From Escherichia phage vB_EcoM_ESCO10, in sequence record OM386655.1: a DNA stretch of 64,000 nt; one strand, given 5' to 3'. Each line of letters begins with the position of its first letter. Position 1 is the stretch's first letter. Positions 2,178 through 50,953 of the stretch are shown one piece after another. Both the position numbers and the translations under genes were made by a program. Under the pieces are notes generated by a model. That model had not been told where the DNA came from. It saw only the letters and a list, made by a program, of their open reading frames with translations, and ran no database searches.

Positions 2178-2519
2178 CTAATAGAAACTTTTTTCGCCGG
2201 TTTGTCCGCTAAACCAGGCTGATTGGGTATTAGGTTTCCGTTGTTGCTCAATACGGGTACGATATTCTTTTCTGATGGCACAGAGGTCATCCTGGAAGTC
2301 GCCTGCCAACTTTACCTGCTTACGGTCTAGATTTATTAAGGCCTGAGTCTTAGCGGCCAAGGCCAGTCTCTTGTAGTCTCCTTCTTCACAATCAGTTTTA
2401 TAAACTCTATTAGCGTATCCGTCGATAAATTCTTTATCATAGTCTTTGATAGACTGTTCCATGGCATTAGAGTACTTCAACTCTGCTTTTATAAGGTCAT
2501 AACTAAATTGTTCAAACAT
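2178..2519 (-). CDS. hypothetical protein
   Basis: 113-aa ORF; AAGGTA SD; co-directional packing. Confidence 0.5.
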   Translation of the reverse strand: MFEQFSYDLIKAELKYSNAMEQSIKDYDKEFIDGYANRVYKTDCEEGDYKRLALAAKTQALINLDRKQVKLAGDFQDDLCAIRKEYRTRIEQQRKPNTQSAWFSGQTGEKSFY

Positions 2520-2528
2520 AATTTACCT

Positions 2529-3509
2529 TTATTTTAAAAGTGTAACTTCAGCAATTTCAGCCCAATCATTAGAATCAGTAGCAATGAAATCAGCCAAATA
2601 GAGGGCGGTACGCAATGAAACATTACGCAAACGTGATACATTAGCCTTCATCCATGAGAGTGCCTGGTAAGTCTGAGCGTCAGTCAGACCACGCTTCTGC
2701 ATCATATCTGTAGACAGGATAACGTCTTCAACACGAACCATAATCTCTTCGTTAGAGTGAACACCCAGGTCTAAGTAAACTGAACGTGATACTAAAGCTT
2801 GGAGATGCGGAGAAAGTTTAGTTCCACGTTCCAATTCACGGTCAATATCAACGTTAGTGATGAATACGACGGTGCCTTCATACTCGAATTCTTTATCGAT
2901 ATTTTTATCATCAAGATAAGAACTTGAAGTGCTCCAGCATACCTTACGTTTCTCACCGGTGTCCAATGCCGCTTTCAGAAGGTTCAGGATATCCATGTCA
3001 GAGAATACATCAACATCATCGATAAGAAGAACACTATTAGGGCCGCGGTTATTCCAAAGCTGCTCGTAAAGACCGATTCCACTAATCTTTCCGTTGATTG
3101 ATTTATATTCGATAGTTTCATTTTCGTGGGCATTCTGTAATGCTTTATCCAATGAATATGTTTTACCAATACCTGCGGCACCAGAGATGATAAGGGAACG
3201 AATTTTACCATCGATGATTCCATTAGTCATCATGTTCATTACTTTAAAACGTTTGTTGATGCGGTGTTTCATTTCGTCCTGGGATTCAGTTAAGACGGCA
3301 GGGGTTTCAACACCTTCAGTTTCGATATCAGATTTGAACACCCATACACCACGCTCTACACCATCAATCTGAACAAAGACCTTACCATCGCCGAGGTGGG
3401 CTTCTGATTCATGAATTTTATTAGGGAACCAGGTTTTACCTGAACTCATGAACGTACCAGAGATTTCGTTACCGCGGTAGATGCCTTTGTTGATTTTGAT
3501 AGTTAACAT
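2529..3509 (-). CDS. P-loop NTPase (AAA-like) with ~100-aa N-terminal extension
   Basis: Walker A GAAGIGKT and Walker B LLIDDVD; start moved from GTG 3524 to ATG 3509 behind AAGGA SD; early-promoter cassette upstream. Confidence 0.6.
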   Translation of the reverse strand: MLTIKINKGIYRGNEISGTFMSSGKTWFPNKIHESEAHLGDGKVFVQIDGVERGVWVFKSDIETEGVETPAVLTESQDEMKHRINKRFKVMNMMTNGIIDGKIRSLIISGAAGIGKTYSLDKALQNAHENETIEYKSINGKISGIGLYEQLWNNRGPNSVLLIDDVDVFSDMDILNLLKAALDTGEKRKVCWSTSSSYLDDKNIDKEFEYEGTVVFITNVDIDRELERGTKLSPHLQALVSRSVYLDLGVHSNEEIMVRVEDVILSTDMMQKRGLTDAQTYQALSWMKANVSRLRNVSLRTALYLADFIATDSNDWAEIAEVTLLK

Positions 3510-43172: not shown

Positions 43173-45335
43173 ATGATTGACAAACTGAGTATTAAAGAAC
43201 TTCCGTTTGTCGATGGTGTACCTGATGCATCCCAAGAGCGTATCCGTTGGATACGCAATGGTGAATGTATTGAAGGAGCCACGACTAAATACGGCCACGA
43301 CGGTAATTTGAATGCTCCTGCTTTAGGAGTACAAACTAACGTAGTTAGATTAGAAGAAAACGGCATAGCTTCTAAAGACAAAATTAATGAGCTTGTAGAT
43401 AACGTTAATTTAATTAATGAAGCCCTGGATATTTCTACTGATACAGCTGTTATTCAGCAAATTGAAAAGAACCGTGTCGATATATTGGCCGTAGATGAAA
43501 AGGCTTCCGAGACTAAAAAGGAATTAAGTGACTTAACAGTTAATTTTAATTTTTTAGAAGAAGACGTCGGTTATTATGACCCGACTTTAGATGGTCCATA
43601 TCTCACTGTTAGAGAAAATATAAATCTTCTTAAATCAGAAATTGGTCATTATGCAAACCAAGATATAAACAGTCAGCCGCTTCCTCCGGGTGAAACTTCT
43701 GAAGCCACCGGTATGAAACGCCGTATTATGGATAATACCAGTGCTATTGTCGACCATTCACAACGTATAGATACCCTTGAAAAGAATTATGAAGATTCTG
43801 ATGTAGGTCAACTCGGGCTTAAACTTAACGAAATTCGTGAAGAACTCGGTCCACACATTGATACGGTAGGTAAACAACCCGCTTATACTAGAATTTCCAC
43901 TCTCGAGACGGCGGCCGTAAGCTTTAACGAATCTATAGATTCTATCAAATCCAGCATAGGCTTTGATACGGGTCCTATTGATACCAGAGTAACTACATTA
44001 GAAACTAAAACATCCGTCCTAGAAAACACCGTTAATAACAGTTTGGTCCCTAGGGTTACTGCAGTAGAAACTGCCATCGGTGCTGCCGATACCCCTACTT
44101 CTATTAATGGCAGATTAGGTGGCTTGCGTACTGATGTTAACGAGTTAAAAACTATAGTTGGTGCTAGTTCATCTGAAGGGCTTCGTTTTCAGGTTTCTGA
44201 TATAGATCGTAAAATCGGCGCTGACGTAAGCCCAGCGGCCGGAACTATCAATAAACGTTTGAACGACCTTACAACTCAAGGTAATACTTCAGCCTCTACT
44301 ATTCAGGATTTGCAGGCAGAAATTGGTAATAACCAGACAGGTATCAAAGGTTCTATTCTTAAAATCACCAACCAAGTTGAAGGAACAAACCCCAACGGTA
44401 GTACTGTAGAAGAACGAGGGTTAATAAACTCTGTTAAAGGCCTTGAAGCTCAGATGACTACAAAATTGGGCGAAGCACCGACTGATGGTAAAATGTACGG
44501 ACGTAAGGATGCAGCATGGACTGAAATTCTTGACAGCACTACAGAGGTCGATGCGGTAAAAGCTTCTTTATTGGTTACTGACGGTAAGGTATCAGCTTTA
44601 ACGGCTAGAGTCGATACTAATGACGCTTCCATTTCTTCTCTTGATACCAGAACAGGTGCTTTAAACACCTCAGTAGGAGAAATTAAAGCCGATATTGTTT
44701 TGTTAAAATCTAAAGATACGGAGCAAGATAATCGTATTACTGCTTTGGAAGAAAGTGACGTAACAATTAATGGCAAAATAACGGCATTAGAAACCAAGAC
44801 CGATACCACTGATTCTGACGTTACTGCTTTGGCTTTAGATGTGAGTTCTATAGAATCACAATTAACTCCTATTAAAGCCGATATAAGCAAGAATAAAGGT
44901 GATATCGTTACTTTAACAGGACGAGTAGCGGCTAATGAAGGTGAAATTACTGATATTAAATTAGATACCGCTAAAATAACTCCTTTAACAACTCGTGTAA
45001 CCACAGCTGAAGGTAAAATAACTACCCTTGAAACGGGTTTAGCCGCAGTTAAAGTTGAATCGGATAAAGTAGCAGGAATTGATACCCGTTTAGGTACGGT
45101 CGAAGGTAAAGTTGGTACTCTTGAAACAGGTTTGGCTGCAGTTAAGGTCGAATCTGATAAAGTTGCTGATTTAGGGACCCGTTTAACTGCTGCTGAAGCA
45201 AAAATTACTGCTTTAGAAACAGAATTGACCAAACGTCCACCTGCTGCCCCTGTTGCAGACGGACTCCCGTATGTTCTGGTTGATAACGCATGGGTATTAT
45301 TGTCCGATTTTGTGACTTTAAACCCGGCACCATAA
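43173..45335 (+). CDS. wac: fibritin (whisker antigen control), elongated
   Basis: 720 aa coiled-coil protein; C-terminal foldon-like ...YVLVDNAWVLLSDFV; T4 Wac is 487 aa. Confidence 0.8.
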   Translation: MIDKLSIKELPFVDGVPDASQERIRWIRNGECIEGATTKYGHDGNLNAPALGVQTNVVRLEENGIASKDKINELVDNVNLINEALDISTDTAVIQQIEKNRVDILAVDEKASETKKELSDLTVNFNFLEEDVGYYDPTLDGPYLTVRENINLLKSEIGHYANQDINSQPLPPGETSEATGMKRRIMDNTSAIVDHSQRIDTLEKNYEDSDVGQLGLKLNEIREELGPHIDTVGKQPAYTRISTLETAAVSFNESIDSIKSSIGFDTGPIDTRVTTLETKTSVLENTVNNSLVPRVTAVETAIGAADTPTSINGRLGGLRTDVNELKTIVGASSSEGLRFQVSDIDRKIGADVSPAAGTINKRLNDLTTQGNTSASTIQDLQAEIGNNQTGIKGSILKITNQVEGTNPNGSTVEERGLINSVKGLEAQMTTKLGEAPTDGKMYGRKDAAWTEILDSTTEVDAVKASLLVTDGKVSALTARVDTNDASISSLDTRTGALNTSVGEIKADIVLLKSKDTEQDNRITALEESDVTINGKITALETKTDTTDSDVTALALDVSSIESQLTPIKADISKNKGDIVTLTGRVAANEGEITDIKLDTAKITPLTTRVTTAEGKITTLETGLAAVKVESDKVAGIDTRLGTVEGKVGTLETGLAAVKVESDKVADLGTRLTAAEAKITALETELTKRPPAAPVADGLPYVLVDNAWVLLSDFVTLNPAP
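45027..45212 (+). repeat. tandem 93-bp (31-codon) duplication inside wac
   Basis: cttgaaacgggtttagccgcagttaaagttgaatcggataaagt... at 45027 recurs at 45120 with few substitutions; protein TLETGLAAVKVESDKVA twice. Confidence 0.8.
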
Positions 45336-45336
45336 T

Positions 45337-45358
45337 AAAAGGGCTTCGGCCCTTTTTT
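45337..45358 (+). terminator. rho-independent terminator after wac
   Basis: AAAAGGGC-TTCG-GCCCTTTTTT. Confidence 0.75.
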
Positions 45359-45360
45359 GC

Positions 45361-45368
45361 TATAAATA
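45361..45368 (+). promoter_or_regulatory. late promoter (TATAAATA) for gene 13
   Basis: Exact TATAAATA 21 nt upstream of ATG, directly after the wac terminator. Confidence 0.65.
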
Positions 45369-45389
45369 CGGTTATTAGAGGAATAAAAC

Positions 45390-46322
45390 ATGGCAAGCGA
45401 ATCATTTAACCCTAAGCAACTCAAGGACGCTATCCTGCGCCGCCTGGGTGCGCCGATTACAAATATTGAAGTAACTACAGACCAAGTATACGATTGCATC
45501 CAGCGAGCCCTAGAGCTCTACGGTGAGTATCATTATAACGGGTATAACAAAGGCTATCAGGCTTTTTATATCGGTCATGACGATGAAGAAAAATTCCGTA
45601 ATGGGGTATTTGACCTTAAAGGCCGTAATATATTTGCAGTGACACAAATTTTGAGAACCAATGTAGGTTCTTTAACATCTATGGATGGGCAAGCAACTTA
45701 TCCATGGTTTACTGATTTTGTATTAGGCTTAGCAGGTATTAATGGCGGGTTAGGGTCTTCGTGTAACAGTTTTGGACCTAATGCCTTCGGTGCTGACCTT
45801 GGTTATTTTACCCAACTAATGCAATATCGTTCTATGATGCAGGACCTTTTGGTTCCACTACCTGATTATTGGTATAACGACGCCACCGAACAGTTGAAGG
45901 TAATGGGTAACTTTGTTAAAGGTGATTTTATTGTAATTGAAGTTTATACTCGCTCTTTTAATGGAGTGGATTCTATGGTAGGAAATACCGTAGGATATGG
46001 TTATGCTTCATCTTGTGGTGAAGATGCATGGAGTCCAGGTGCTGTTTGGGATAATCCGGCTCGTCGTATTTCTGGTATGCGTGTAGGTGAGGACCTTGGT
46101 CTTCAAGATGGTGCATATAATAACCGTTGGGTTAAAGATTATGCTACTGCATTGGTTAAAGAAGTCAATGGTAATATTTTAGCCAAACACCAAGGCATGC
46201 AACTTGCAGGTGGAACCACCGTAGATGGTATTCGATTGATTGAAGAAGCTCGTTTAGAAAAAGAACGTCTTCGCGAAGAATTGGATTTACTCGACCCACC
46301 AACACCTATTTTAATTGGATAA
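45390..46322 (+). CDS. 13: gp13 neck protein
   Basis: 310 aa (T4 309); TATAAATA late promoter and GAGGAA SD. Confidence 0.85.
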
Positions 46323-46324
46323 TT

Positions 46325-46969
46325 ATGAACTATAATAAGATTTACAAATCTTTAATAAATAAGGGCCTCGAAAGAGGTCTAAATAAAAAGAAGGTAGGGT
46401 TTTATACAGAGAAGCATCATATTGTCCCTAAATCCATGGGTGGTAGTGAAGACAAATCTAATTTTGTTCTTTTAACCGCTAGAGAACATTTTGTAGCTCA
46501 TCAATTATTGTATAAAATACACAAAAACCGTTCTATGGCCCATGCTATGATTAATATGTGTGCTGATAGCACAGGTAATAGGGTTAATTCTAAGTTATTA
46601 GATTGGCACCGTAAAGCTAAGGCTAAGGCCCAAAGTGAGATGGTTTCAGGTGAAAACCATCCTATGTATAACAAGAAACATAAAAAAGAAACATTAGAAA
46701 AAATGAGATTGGCCAAATTAGGCGTCCCATGGACTGAAGAAGTTAAGGAATCTAGAAGAGAAGAATTACTTAAAACCTCTGAACACGCTAGGACTTTCAT
46801 CGACTATAAATCTGGCGGAGAAAATCCAGCCGCAAAGAAAATATGTATAGAAGGTATAGTATTTGATTATATGGAAGAAGCGGTTCCTTGGTGTAATATA
46901 ACAAGAAGAACTCTTTTAAATAGAATCAAATCTTCAGACCCTAAATGGAGGGATTGGAATTATGTCTAA
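46325..46969 (+). CDS. HNH homing endonuclease (free-standing)
   Basis: H-N-H motif region [31 protein letters not shown]; inserted between genes 13 and 14, which are adjacent in T4. Confidence 0.75.
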
Positions 46970-47738
46970 CACTTTTGATTCAAGCTTATTTGCTAGGCTT
47001 GAGGATGGTTCAGGTTACGTTAATACAAATAAAAGCGAAATTCTCAATCCGTTCGTCAACTTTTATCGCCATGAGAATACTCAAACATTGGCCGATGCTT
47101 TAGTTGCAGAATCTATCCAAATGAGGGGAATTCCTTTATATTATATCCCTAGACAGTATGTTAAGCCTGACCAATTGTTCGGCGAAGACCTCCAAAACAA
47201 GTTTACAGTGGCCTGGAAGTTTGCGGGTTATTTGGATTCCTTTGAAGGATATTCTGGTGACAATACTTATTTCAGTAAGTTTGGTATGATGGTTAATGAT
47301 GAAGTAACAATCACAATTAACCCTAACCTTTTTAAACATCAATGCAACGGTACTGAACCAGCTTCAGGTGATTTGATTTATTTCCCTATGGACAACAGCC
47401 TATTTGAAATTAACTGGGTTCAACCTTACGACCCGTTCTATCAAGTTGGTACAAACGTCCAGCGTCGTATTACTGCTACCAAGTTCATTTATAATGGTGA
47501 AGAACTTCGTCCTGAATTACAGAGAAATGAAGGTATTAATATTCCTGAATTCAGTGAGCTTGATTTAATGCCTGTTAAGAATATTGATGGGTTGGCTGAT
47601 ATCTCAGATATCCAATACGAAGAGGTTAATGAGATTAATGCTGAAGCGGCGGAATTCGTACACCCTTATGTGGTGATTAATGGTAGAGGAGAAGATGCTC
47701 CTCCTACAGCATTTGATGATGCTTTTTTAGATGATTAA
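46962..47738 (+). CDS. 14: gp14 neck protein
   Basis: 258 aa (T4 256); synteny. Confidence 0.85.
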
Positions 47739-47776
47739 ATAATACATGGCGCATAGTGCGCCATTTAGGAGGTTTG

Positions 47777-48639
47777 ATGTTTGGACATTGGTATAATAGT
47801 TCGCTACGTCGCTATATTGTTTTGATGGGTGATTTATTTTCCCATGTTCAAGTAGCGCGTCAAAGAGAAGACACAGGGCTTAAATTTATTAAAGTTCCTA
47901 TTACATATGCTTCTAAAGAAAGATTTATGGCTAATTTAGGTAAGTGGACGGCAGTTCAAAATATCCCAAATCCTAATATGTCTCCTAAAGAAAGGGCTGA
48001 ACAAAAAGCTAAAGTGGAAACTGTTCTTCCACGTATGAACCTTCAAATGGTTGACATGCTTTATAACTCACAATACAAAACAGCCCTTCAAAATAGAACA
48101 CAAATACAATTTGAGAACGGAGACCCGCGAAAACGAGTCAGCCAATATTCTCCTACTCCAGTAAAAATGATTTTTGAACTAGGAATTTACACTAGAACTC
48201 AAGATGATATGTTCCAAATTGTGGAACAAATTATGCCATATTTCCAACCTCACTTTAATACAACAATTACCGAACTCTATACAAACGAAATTAAATTTGA
48301 CCGCGACATTCGTATTGTATTTCAATCTATAGCAATGGACGAACAATTAGAAGGTGATACCAGTTCACGTCGTCGCTTGGAATGGTCTATGATGTTTGAG
48401 GTTAACGGATGGCTGTATCCTCCTGTTAAAGAAATGGAAGGCGAAATCAAAACCATTTATCTTGATTTCTTTGCCAACTCTAAAGAACTCGCTCCTGAAG
48501 GTAATTTTGAATCTGTTGATAGCGAAGTGGTTCCTAGAGGTGTAGAAGAAAAAGAATGGGATGGTAGATCCATTCAAACATATTCACAAGATATTCCGGT
48601 GCCTGTTGAACCAGAACCTCCAGCACCAAGGAGAAACTC

Positions 48640-48643
<4 letters not shown>
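47777..48643 (+). CDS. 15: gp15 tail sheath stabilizer / tail terminator
   Basis: Similar to T4 gp15 (MFG..YNSS.RRY..LMGDLFS...); start moved from GTG 47756 to ATG 47777 behind TAGGAGG SD. Confidence 0.9.

Positions 48644-50953
<2,310 letters not shown>

Follow-up and report, generated by a model that had tools for sequence, protein, structure and literature searches.

The closest described relatives of the gene considered here are the free-standing homing endonuclease genes of coliphage T4. Seven of the seg and mob genes of this phage are promoter-less cassettes, an arrangement reviewed together with the translationally coupled start of mobE and with co-conversion (PMC2988022). MobE is a 141-aa protein encoded between nrdA and nrdB, within the early/middle nrd operon, from such a cassette, and its start codon abuts the upstream stop codon in the sequence UAAUGA (PMC2988022). 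SegF, SegG and SegB are likewise free-standing between conserved genes, and a tract of the neighboring gene travels along with them (PMC2988022; PMC2330249). I-TevI of the td intron is intron-encoded and couples a GIY-YIG nuclease through a linker to a helix-turn-helix DNA-binding domain. More generally, homing endonuclease genes occur at the borders of recombination, in the vicinity of structural genes (PMC10448857).

Here, we examine an open reading frame (ORF) of Escherichia phage vB_EcoM_ESCO10, a Dhakavirus that was isolated against avian-pathogenic E. coli and used in a phage therapy cocktail, and whose published description does not discuss this gene (PMC10269720). The analysis covers a stretch of 64,000 nucleotides of its genome (OM386655.1), referred to below as the window. 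With a probability of roughly 85%, we consider the ORF to be a free-standing homing endonuclease gene of the T4 Mob kind (MobE-like HNH), located at the junction of neck genes 13 and 14 in a JS98-like Dhakavirus. Such a gene is a rare addition to a known class, that of the free-standing Mob-type HNH homing endonucleases, and conceptually nothing new; its location is of a known kind and its co-conversion footprint a textbook one, neither of which would surprise a specialist.

Organization of the locus

The features around the ORF are as follows:

45390–46322, + strand: gene 13 (neck / head-tail adaptor Ad2), from PHROG, with annotated orthologues in FB, C6, MX01 and JS98
46325–46969, + strand: probable HNH homing endonuclease gene, 214 aa, from the ORF list and from domain and family searches
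46962–47738, + strand: gene 14 (neck / head closure Hc2), from Pfam (T4_neck-protein)

The ORF begins with an ATG that is separated from the TAA stop of gene 13 (46320–46322) by two spacer bases (tt), and it ends with a TAA (46967–46969) that lies beyond the gene 14 start at 46962, producing an 8-nt overlap within ATGTCTAA. Both borders agree with the initial annotation, which had placed the ORF 3 nt past the gene 13 stop (the ATG begins at the third base after it) and had reported the 8-nt overlap, here read again from the raw sequence. The same annotation had named the flanking genes as 13 and 14, and profile searches identify them accordingly: the gene 13 product matches the PHROG head-tail adaptor Ad2 family (6.8e-41), the gene 14 product matches Pfam T4_neck-protein (1.7e-103), and the ORF 3′ of gene 14 matches gp15 (2.6e-100). 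As had also been noted, gene 14 directly follows gene 13 in T4; the spacer there is 1 nt. The small terminase subunit gene lies two genes downstream of the HNH gene, in the late morphogenesis operon. The G+C content of the HNH gene is 34.4%, compared with 41.3% in gene 13 and 39.4% in the window as a whole.

Within positions 45000–48000, a search for group I introns and other Rfam families (E ≤ 1) returned nothing beyond one chance-level hit. Because no intron or other RNA family is present there, and because genes 13 and 14 are separate ORFs, the HNH gene is free-standing; an intron-encoded endonuclease is ruled out.

Domains and family of the protein

The protein has a three-part build, in which an HNH nuclease is followed by a NUMOD3 linker motif and a probable I-TevI-type helix-turn-helix:

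46409–46501, + strand: catalytic H-N-H core, aa 29–59 (E29 H31 H32 ... N46 ... H55 H59), invariant in the family alignment
46634–46708, + strand: NUMOD3 DNA-binding motif, aa 104–128 (Pfam PF07460, 30 bits against a cut-off of 20.4, 5e-07)
46829–46963, + strand: probable C-terminal I-TevI-type helix-turn-helix module, aa 169–213 (Pfam PF20987, phmmer, Foldseek)

The match to PHROG 655, ‘homing endonuclease’ (3.8e-49), the NUMOD3 motif and 243 homologues (E ≤ 1e-5) show that this reading frame has not arisen by chance. An alignment of 44 sequences, comprising the window protein and 43 homologues from a search of 5.8 billion proteins, contains ten invariant columns (E29, H31, H32, P35, G39, G40, N46, H55, H59 and L62), and the window protein retains every one of them. 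The clear H-N-H motif region recognized at first sight thus withstands alignment, with all catalytic His and Asn residues intact. The motif also aligns with the HNH of a group II intron maturase (6me0_C) and with Cas8-HNH fusions, and Pfam HNH (PF01844) scores 20.1 bits over aa 28–50, just under its curated cut-off of 21.4. The homology search among mob and HNH families that had been proposed for this gene leads to T4 MobE, which is 49% identical over aa 1–79 (E 3e-24), and the nearest phage homologues are mobE-position genes beside nrdA, at about 39% identity. MobE differs in having neither the NUMOD3 motif nor the I-TevI-type helix-turn-helix tail.

Evidence for this tail comes from several methods. 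The I-TevI DNA-binding profile (PF20987, I-TevI_DNA-bd) gives 1.4e-3 and 18.9 bits, under its cut-off of 27, and the copy in phage FB gives 23.5 bits. On an AF2 model (pLDDT 90.7), the best Foldseek match is the DNA-binding domain of I-TevI (1i3j_A, probability 1.00, E 3e-3), and whole-chain Foldseek matches to HNH domains are only weak. Moreover, phmmer matches the C-terminal module to 1i3j, weakly (E 0.06, 23% identity). The protein and I-TevI therefore appear to share a nuclease–linker–helix-turn-helix layout, whereas their nucleases and genetic settings differ.

In GenBank, the identical ESCO10 protein (UPW37879.1, 100% identity) is labeled ‘baseplate hub subunit and tail lysozyme’ and its FB counterpart (QLF81369.1) ‘hypothetical protein’. 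Pfam and PHROG searches find no lysozyme or baseplate domain in the protein. For an HNH/NUMOD3 endonuclease both labels are wrong or uninformative, and the present assignment corrects the public annotation of both records.

Distribution and the empty site

The HNH gene is rare, and phages without it are the rule. Among about 15 billion proteins, its cluster at 90% identity has three members, namely the ESCO10 protein, the FB protein QLF81369.1 and one metagenomic sequence; in IMG/VR, no close copy was found, the best match reaching 55% over the N-terminus. A megablast of the stretch from gene 13 through the HNH gene to gene 14 matched 110 phage records, with the insert in FB only. For the remaining close relatives, the alignment is split in two and extends over about 1710 nt rather than 2349. 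When a 200-nt probe of the empty junction from phage C6 was used, the 13/14 junction was fully covered in 47 of 50 related phage records (a number that includes GenBank/RefSeq duplicates), the exceptions being FB and the two accessions of MX01. A further copy was located in the metagenome contig OERM01001490.1 (L026) with a 24-mer taken from the overlap of the HNH gene and gene 14.

In the empty alleles the junction reads TAA-tt-ATG, the ATG being that of gene 14, and the left flank up to the ATG is identical between filled and empty alleles. The window, FB and the metagenome contig are filled at this same nucleotide, and the HNH ORF is intact in all copies. Insert-free alleles at this position, whose absence among close relatives would have spoken against an insertion, are therefore plentiful. 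Together with the mobile block described below and the intact catalytic residues, they support the original proposal of an HNH homing endonuclease gene inserted between genes 13 and 14.

A mobile block with a foreign gene 14 tract

Comparison of the window with FB and with the metagenome contig delimits a block that is larger than the gene itself:

46284–47218, + strand: mobile block, in which the HNH gene is flanked by the final 41 nt of gene 13 and the initial 257 nt of gene 14
46962–47218, + strand: foreign (putatively co-converted) 5′ tract of gene 14, about 79% identical to insert-free Dhakavirus alleles

Between the window and FB, gene 13 up to 46283 contains 78 mismatches in 894 nt (8.7%). 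The following 935 nt (46284–47218) contain five, all inside the HNH ORF, and from 47219 onward the divergence returns to about 8%. In gene 13 the window is close to C6 (about 2.8% divergence) and FB is close to MX01, so the same block lies in different backbones. Throughout the HNH gene and the 5′ end of gene 14, the metagenome contig matches FB without a single difference. Given the divergence of the flanks, the chance of finding no mismatch in the 298 nt of the block outside the endonuclease gene is about 1e-11 to 1e-14. As judged from these comparisons, an identity of 99.5–100% across three backbones that differ by 8–12% in gene 13 shows that the block has moved horizontally.

The gene 14 tract is itself unusual, being 77–79.5% identical to every insert-free allele in the phage collection; a blastn search of this collection for its donor found nothing closer than 79.5%. 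Its changes are mostly synonymous; about 11 amino acids differ within residues 1–83, and hardly any further on. A near-identical block with a linked foreign tract of the adjacent gene is the pattern expected of homing with co-conversion, although it is a footprint and not an observed event. It also agrees with the reported position of nuclease genes at recombination borders (PMC10448857). SegF, SegG and SegB of T4 differ in this respect, as their cleavage sites and marker exclusion have been shown experimentally, whereas the present evidence is genomic. The locus nonetheless offers a very clean natural footprint of intronless homing: the empty site is exact, the block has sharp edges, and a foreign tract is linked to it that belongs to an essential structural gene. 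Such a footprint could help in mapping the target site of a Mob-type enzyme; few sites of this kind are known. In phage therapy cocktails, such elements would bias the inheritance of neighboring structural genes during mixed infections.

The contig shows a peculiarity just upstream of the block, where 540 nt of gene 13 (45729–46268) differ from FB at 68 positions (12.6%). It is also identical to FB in the 3′ end of wac and the first 340 nt of gene 13, and the divergent stretch is a second recombination tract abutting the endonuclease gene.

Candidate target site and insert ends

Four diverse empty alleles have the same first 21 nt in gene 14 (ATGGCTACTTTCGATTCGAGT). These are altered in both endonuclease-carrying lineages, that of the window and FB and that of MX01, which carries a different gene at the junction (see “Other occupants of the junction”). 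The remaining differences of MX01 from C6 are ordinary polymorphisms, present also in the empty allele of PSD2002. Because these 21 nt are altered in both carrier lineages, the target site most likely lies at the junction and the start of gene 14. It could reach up to about 250 nt into gene 14, and the window and FB share a second cluster of unique substitutions at 47117–47210. The change in codon 2 of gene 14 is partly forced by the C-terminal codons of the endonuclease (…W-N-Y-V-stop).

An imperfect direct repeat was also observed at the ends of the insert, with ATTGGATAATTATG (46307–46327) on the left and ATTGGA--ATTATG (46951–46964) on the right. The last codons of the endonuclease therefore recreate a near copy of the native initiation region of gene 14. 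Such a repeat could have been selected because it preserves the translation of gene 14, or it could be a microhomology that the original insertion exploited.

Other occupants of the junction

In MX01 and vB_EcoM_005, the nucleotide position of the HNH gene is taken by another gene, of 208 aa. Homologues of the MX01 gene with 57–62% identity lie between genes 13 and 14, again overlapping gene 14, in Mosigvirus, Gaprivervirus (SP18 ‘segC’) and Krischvirus, and the family comprises 78 matching records across several genera. In three genomes the gene was placed as follows (positions in the extracted loci):

MX01 (L003), 2439–3065: seg-like gene at the 13/14 junction, overlapping the gene 14 start
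moskry (L027), 1198–1833: seg-like gene at the 13/14 junction, overlapping the gene 14 start
G5211 (L028), 1177–1821: seg-like gene at the 13/14 junction, overlapping the gene 14 start

The N-terminus of these proteins (YRLY…KIYGGK) is unrelated to HNH and belongs to PHROG 314, and some records label them GIY-YIG or seg. Since Pfam detects no GIY-YIG domain in the proteins of MX01, moskry and G5211, the family name used here draws on these annotations and on the YRLY...KIYGGK motif.

Members of the family (MX01 ORF161, vB_EcoM_005, Mosigvirus moskry_190, Krischvirus G5211_00151 and SP18 ‘segC’) share with the HNH gene the insertion site and the overlap with gene 14. They also share NUMOD3 and a probable I-TevI-type helix-turn-helix, 36–42% identical to that of the HNH protein, and an ending of the form ...PKW[RK][DE]W.YV, whose codons supply the Shine-Dalgarno sequence of gene 14; in both lineages the first ~21 nt of gene 14 are changed. 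The two differ in their unrelated nuclease domains and in abundance, the 78 seg-like records contrasting with an HNH occupant in only 3–4 known genomes. The 13/14 junction is thus a multi-genus hotspot (Dhakavirus, Mosigvirus, Gaprivervirus and Krischvirus) for endonuclease genes of two families, to which ESCO10 adds a rare HNH occupant.

Among phage genomes, the closest relatives of aa 101–214 of the HNH protein are the seg-like proteins of the same site, and the helix-turn-helix (aa 160–214) scores 48–50 bits with these proteins as against at most 35 bits with the 120 closest HNH-family proteins. The HNH protein might accordingly be a chimera of a MobE-type HNH nuclease and the helix-turn-helix of the seg-like family, in which case two nuclease chemistries would recognize, and compete for, one homing site. 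We regard this origin as possible but rather doubtful, because a HMMER search of 1.84 billion representatives returned several GIY-YIG-type metagenomic proteins that tie at 48–51 bits, and an HNH-linked helix-turn-helix that reaches 44 bits at best. A homologous-protein search with the C-terminal half of the HNH protein alone gave no match.

The same region of vB_EcoM_005 (MK295203.1) is arranged unusually. The record (L022, 833–1400 and 1402–2275) first shows an empty-type 13/14 junction with about 100 nt of gene 14; the 3′ end of gene 13 then appears again, this time leading into the MX01-type endonuclease gene and gene 14. In addition, 230 nt of gene 13 occur twice, and the annotation splits the neck genes into fragments. 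This is either a misassembly of a mixed population of filled and empty alleles or a real partial duplication at the homing site.

Transcription and translation

The following elements bear on the expression of the HNH gene and of gene 14:

45337–45358, + strand: hairpin resembling a terminator, 3′ of wac (AAAAGGGC-TTCG-GCCCTTTT and then a T run), read from the sequence
45361–45368, + strand: T4-type late promoter motif TATAAATA, 22 nt upstream of the gene 13 ATG
46947–46952, + strand: Shine-Dalgarno sequence GGAGGG of gene 14, 9 nt before the ATG and inside the HNH codons for K-W-R-D-W

From the wac stop onward, the order is hairpin and T run, TATAAATA, a Shine-Dalgarno sequence and the gene 13 ATG. 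The hairpin, which is absent from the list of the consensus terminator scan, probably marks the end of the upstream transcription unit. The motif at 45361 presumably serves as the promoter of genes 13, HNH and 14, the next TATAAATA on the + strand being at 50444. Between 43137 and 49449, no terminator was predicted on the + strand, and the scan for sigma-70 promoters and terminators yielded no more sites than expected and, within the insert, none that is relevant. Because neither a nearer promoter motif nor a predicted terminator is present, the HNH gene can be described as a promoter-less cassette in a late 13–14 unit. In this it resembles mobE, which is also a promoter-less cassette inside a host operon, although the operon is a late neck operon here.

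The overlap with gene 14 had been taken to imply both co-transcription and translational coupling of gene 14 to the endonuclease gene. Co-transcription is borne out as far as the sequence can tell, given one late promoter and no terminator. Coupling, however, is not implied, since gene 14 has a strong Shine-Dalgarno sequence of its own, GGAGGG, in place of which the seg-like gene of MX01 has AAGGAG; it is possible nevertheless. By comparison with insert-free phages, where the TAA-tt-ATG junction and the sequence before it serve gene 14, it is the HNH gene that appears to have taken both over, and thereby to have itself inherited the coupled arrangement. The abutting stop and start codons of this gene (TAAttATG) and of mobE suggest, by analogy, coupled and limited translation in both. 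RNA folding around the starts of the HNH gene and of gene 14 revealed no structure beyond shuffled controls (z 0.82 and −1.07, respectively), and hence gave no evidence for a mobE-like hairpin sequestering the ribosome-binding site. The locus accordingly differs from mobE, as neither an internal terminator nor such a hairpin was found in the scan and in RNA folding.

Proposed homing mechanism and alternative explanations

The proposed mechanism is as follows. Having no promoter of its own, the HNH gene would be transcribed late from the late promoter of gene 13 and translated from the TAA-tt-ATG junction that was originally that of gene 14. During mixed infection, the enzyme would bind the insert-free 13/14 allele of the other phage and cut it, either at the junction itself or up to ~250 nt inside gene 14. 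Recombination-dependent repair of the T4 type would then copy the endonuclease gene from the donor together with adjacent gene 14 sequence, resulting in co-conversion. The carrier would be protected, as the insert splits the site and the 5′ tract of gene 14 is heavily substituted. The element would further pay its way by providing, in its own last codons, the replacement ribosome-binding site GGAGGG for the essential gene 14.

The most serious alternative, which we nonetheless consider unlikely, is a gene derived from a homing endonuclease that no longer homes, being inactive or domesticated, so that its patchy distribution would stem from ordinary recombination with crossovers forced to the block edges. 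These phages commonly share mosaic blocks in which several hundred bases are identical, as seen in gene 13 between the window and C6 and between FB and MX01. Since such blocks are common, the footprint demonstrates horizontal movement of the block and not a cut by the enzyme itself; general recombination could have moved it. The constant edges could likewise arise from suppressed crossing-over inside non-homologous or 21%-diverged DNA, which would give the same block boundaries in all pairs, and homing is not inferable from sequence alone, as has been cautioned (PMC10448857). Against a gene that has ceased to home, no copy has a disrupted ORF, every catalytic residue that is invariant in the family is retained, the near-identity of the block across diverged backbones points to recent spread, and the linked foreign flank is the specific footprint of gene conversion initiated by a break (PMC2988022).

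Two further readings are far less probable. An HNH gene that is ancestral at the 13/14 junction and was deleted in most relatives would accord with presence and absence, which by themselves lack polarity, and with the different endonuclease found at this site in several genera. We judge it very improbable, as Dhakavirus (TAA-tt-ATG, 47 records) and T4 (1-nt spacer) have the same compact empty junction, and as repeated exact deletions that also restored a native-looking 5′ end of gene 14 are implausible; moreover, the insert is AT-richer than its flanks and the gene 14 tract is foreign to the genus. Least likely of all is a protein that serves the phage, either as a packaging-associated HNH nuclease like those beside the terminase genes of HK97-like phages or as a virion protein in keeping with the GenBank label. 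The position in a late morphogenesis operon close upstream of the small terminase subunit gene fits such a role, and HNH helpers of the HK97 type are discussed in PMC10448857. Nearly all relatives and T4 are viable without the gene, however, and its domains are HNH, NUMOD3 and I-TevI-type DNA-binding rather than lysozyme or baseplate. A homing endonuclease of the Mob kind thus remains the preferred reading.

Neighboring genes

Several observations concern the genes on either side. A perfect GC-rich palindrome, ATGGCGCA-TAG-TGCGCCAT (47746–47764), lies in the 38 nt that separate the gene 14 stop from the ribosome-binding site of gene 15 (AGGAGG, 47767–47772). This hairpin has no T run on the + strand and may be an RNA stability or processing element. 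The mechanically called gene 15 ORF (47756–48643) begins at a GTG at 47756; the real start is likely the in-frame ATG at 47777, which has the AGGAGG ahead of it. Upstream, the fibritin gene wac (43173–45335) encodes 720 aa, compared with 487 aa in T4 (a 1464-nt gene), and in its product TLETGLAAVKVESDKVA occurs two times as a near-exact internal repeat. No other gene nearby comes close to it in mosaicism, identity to relatives being 50–90% in 60-nt windows.
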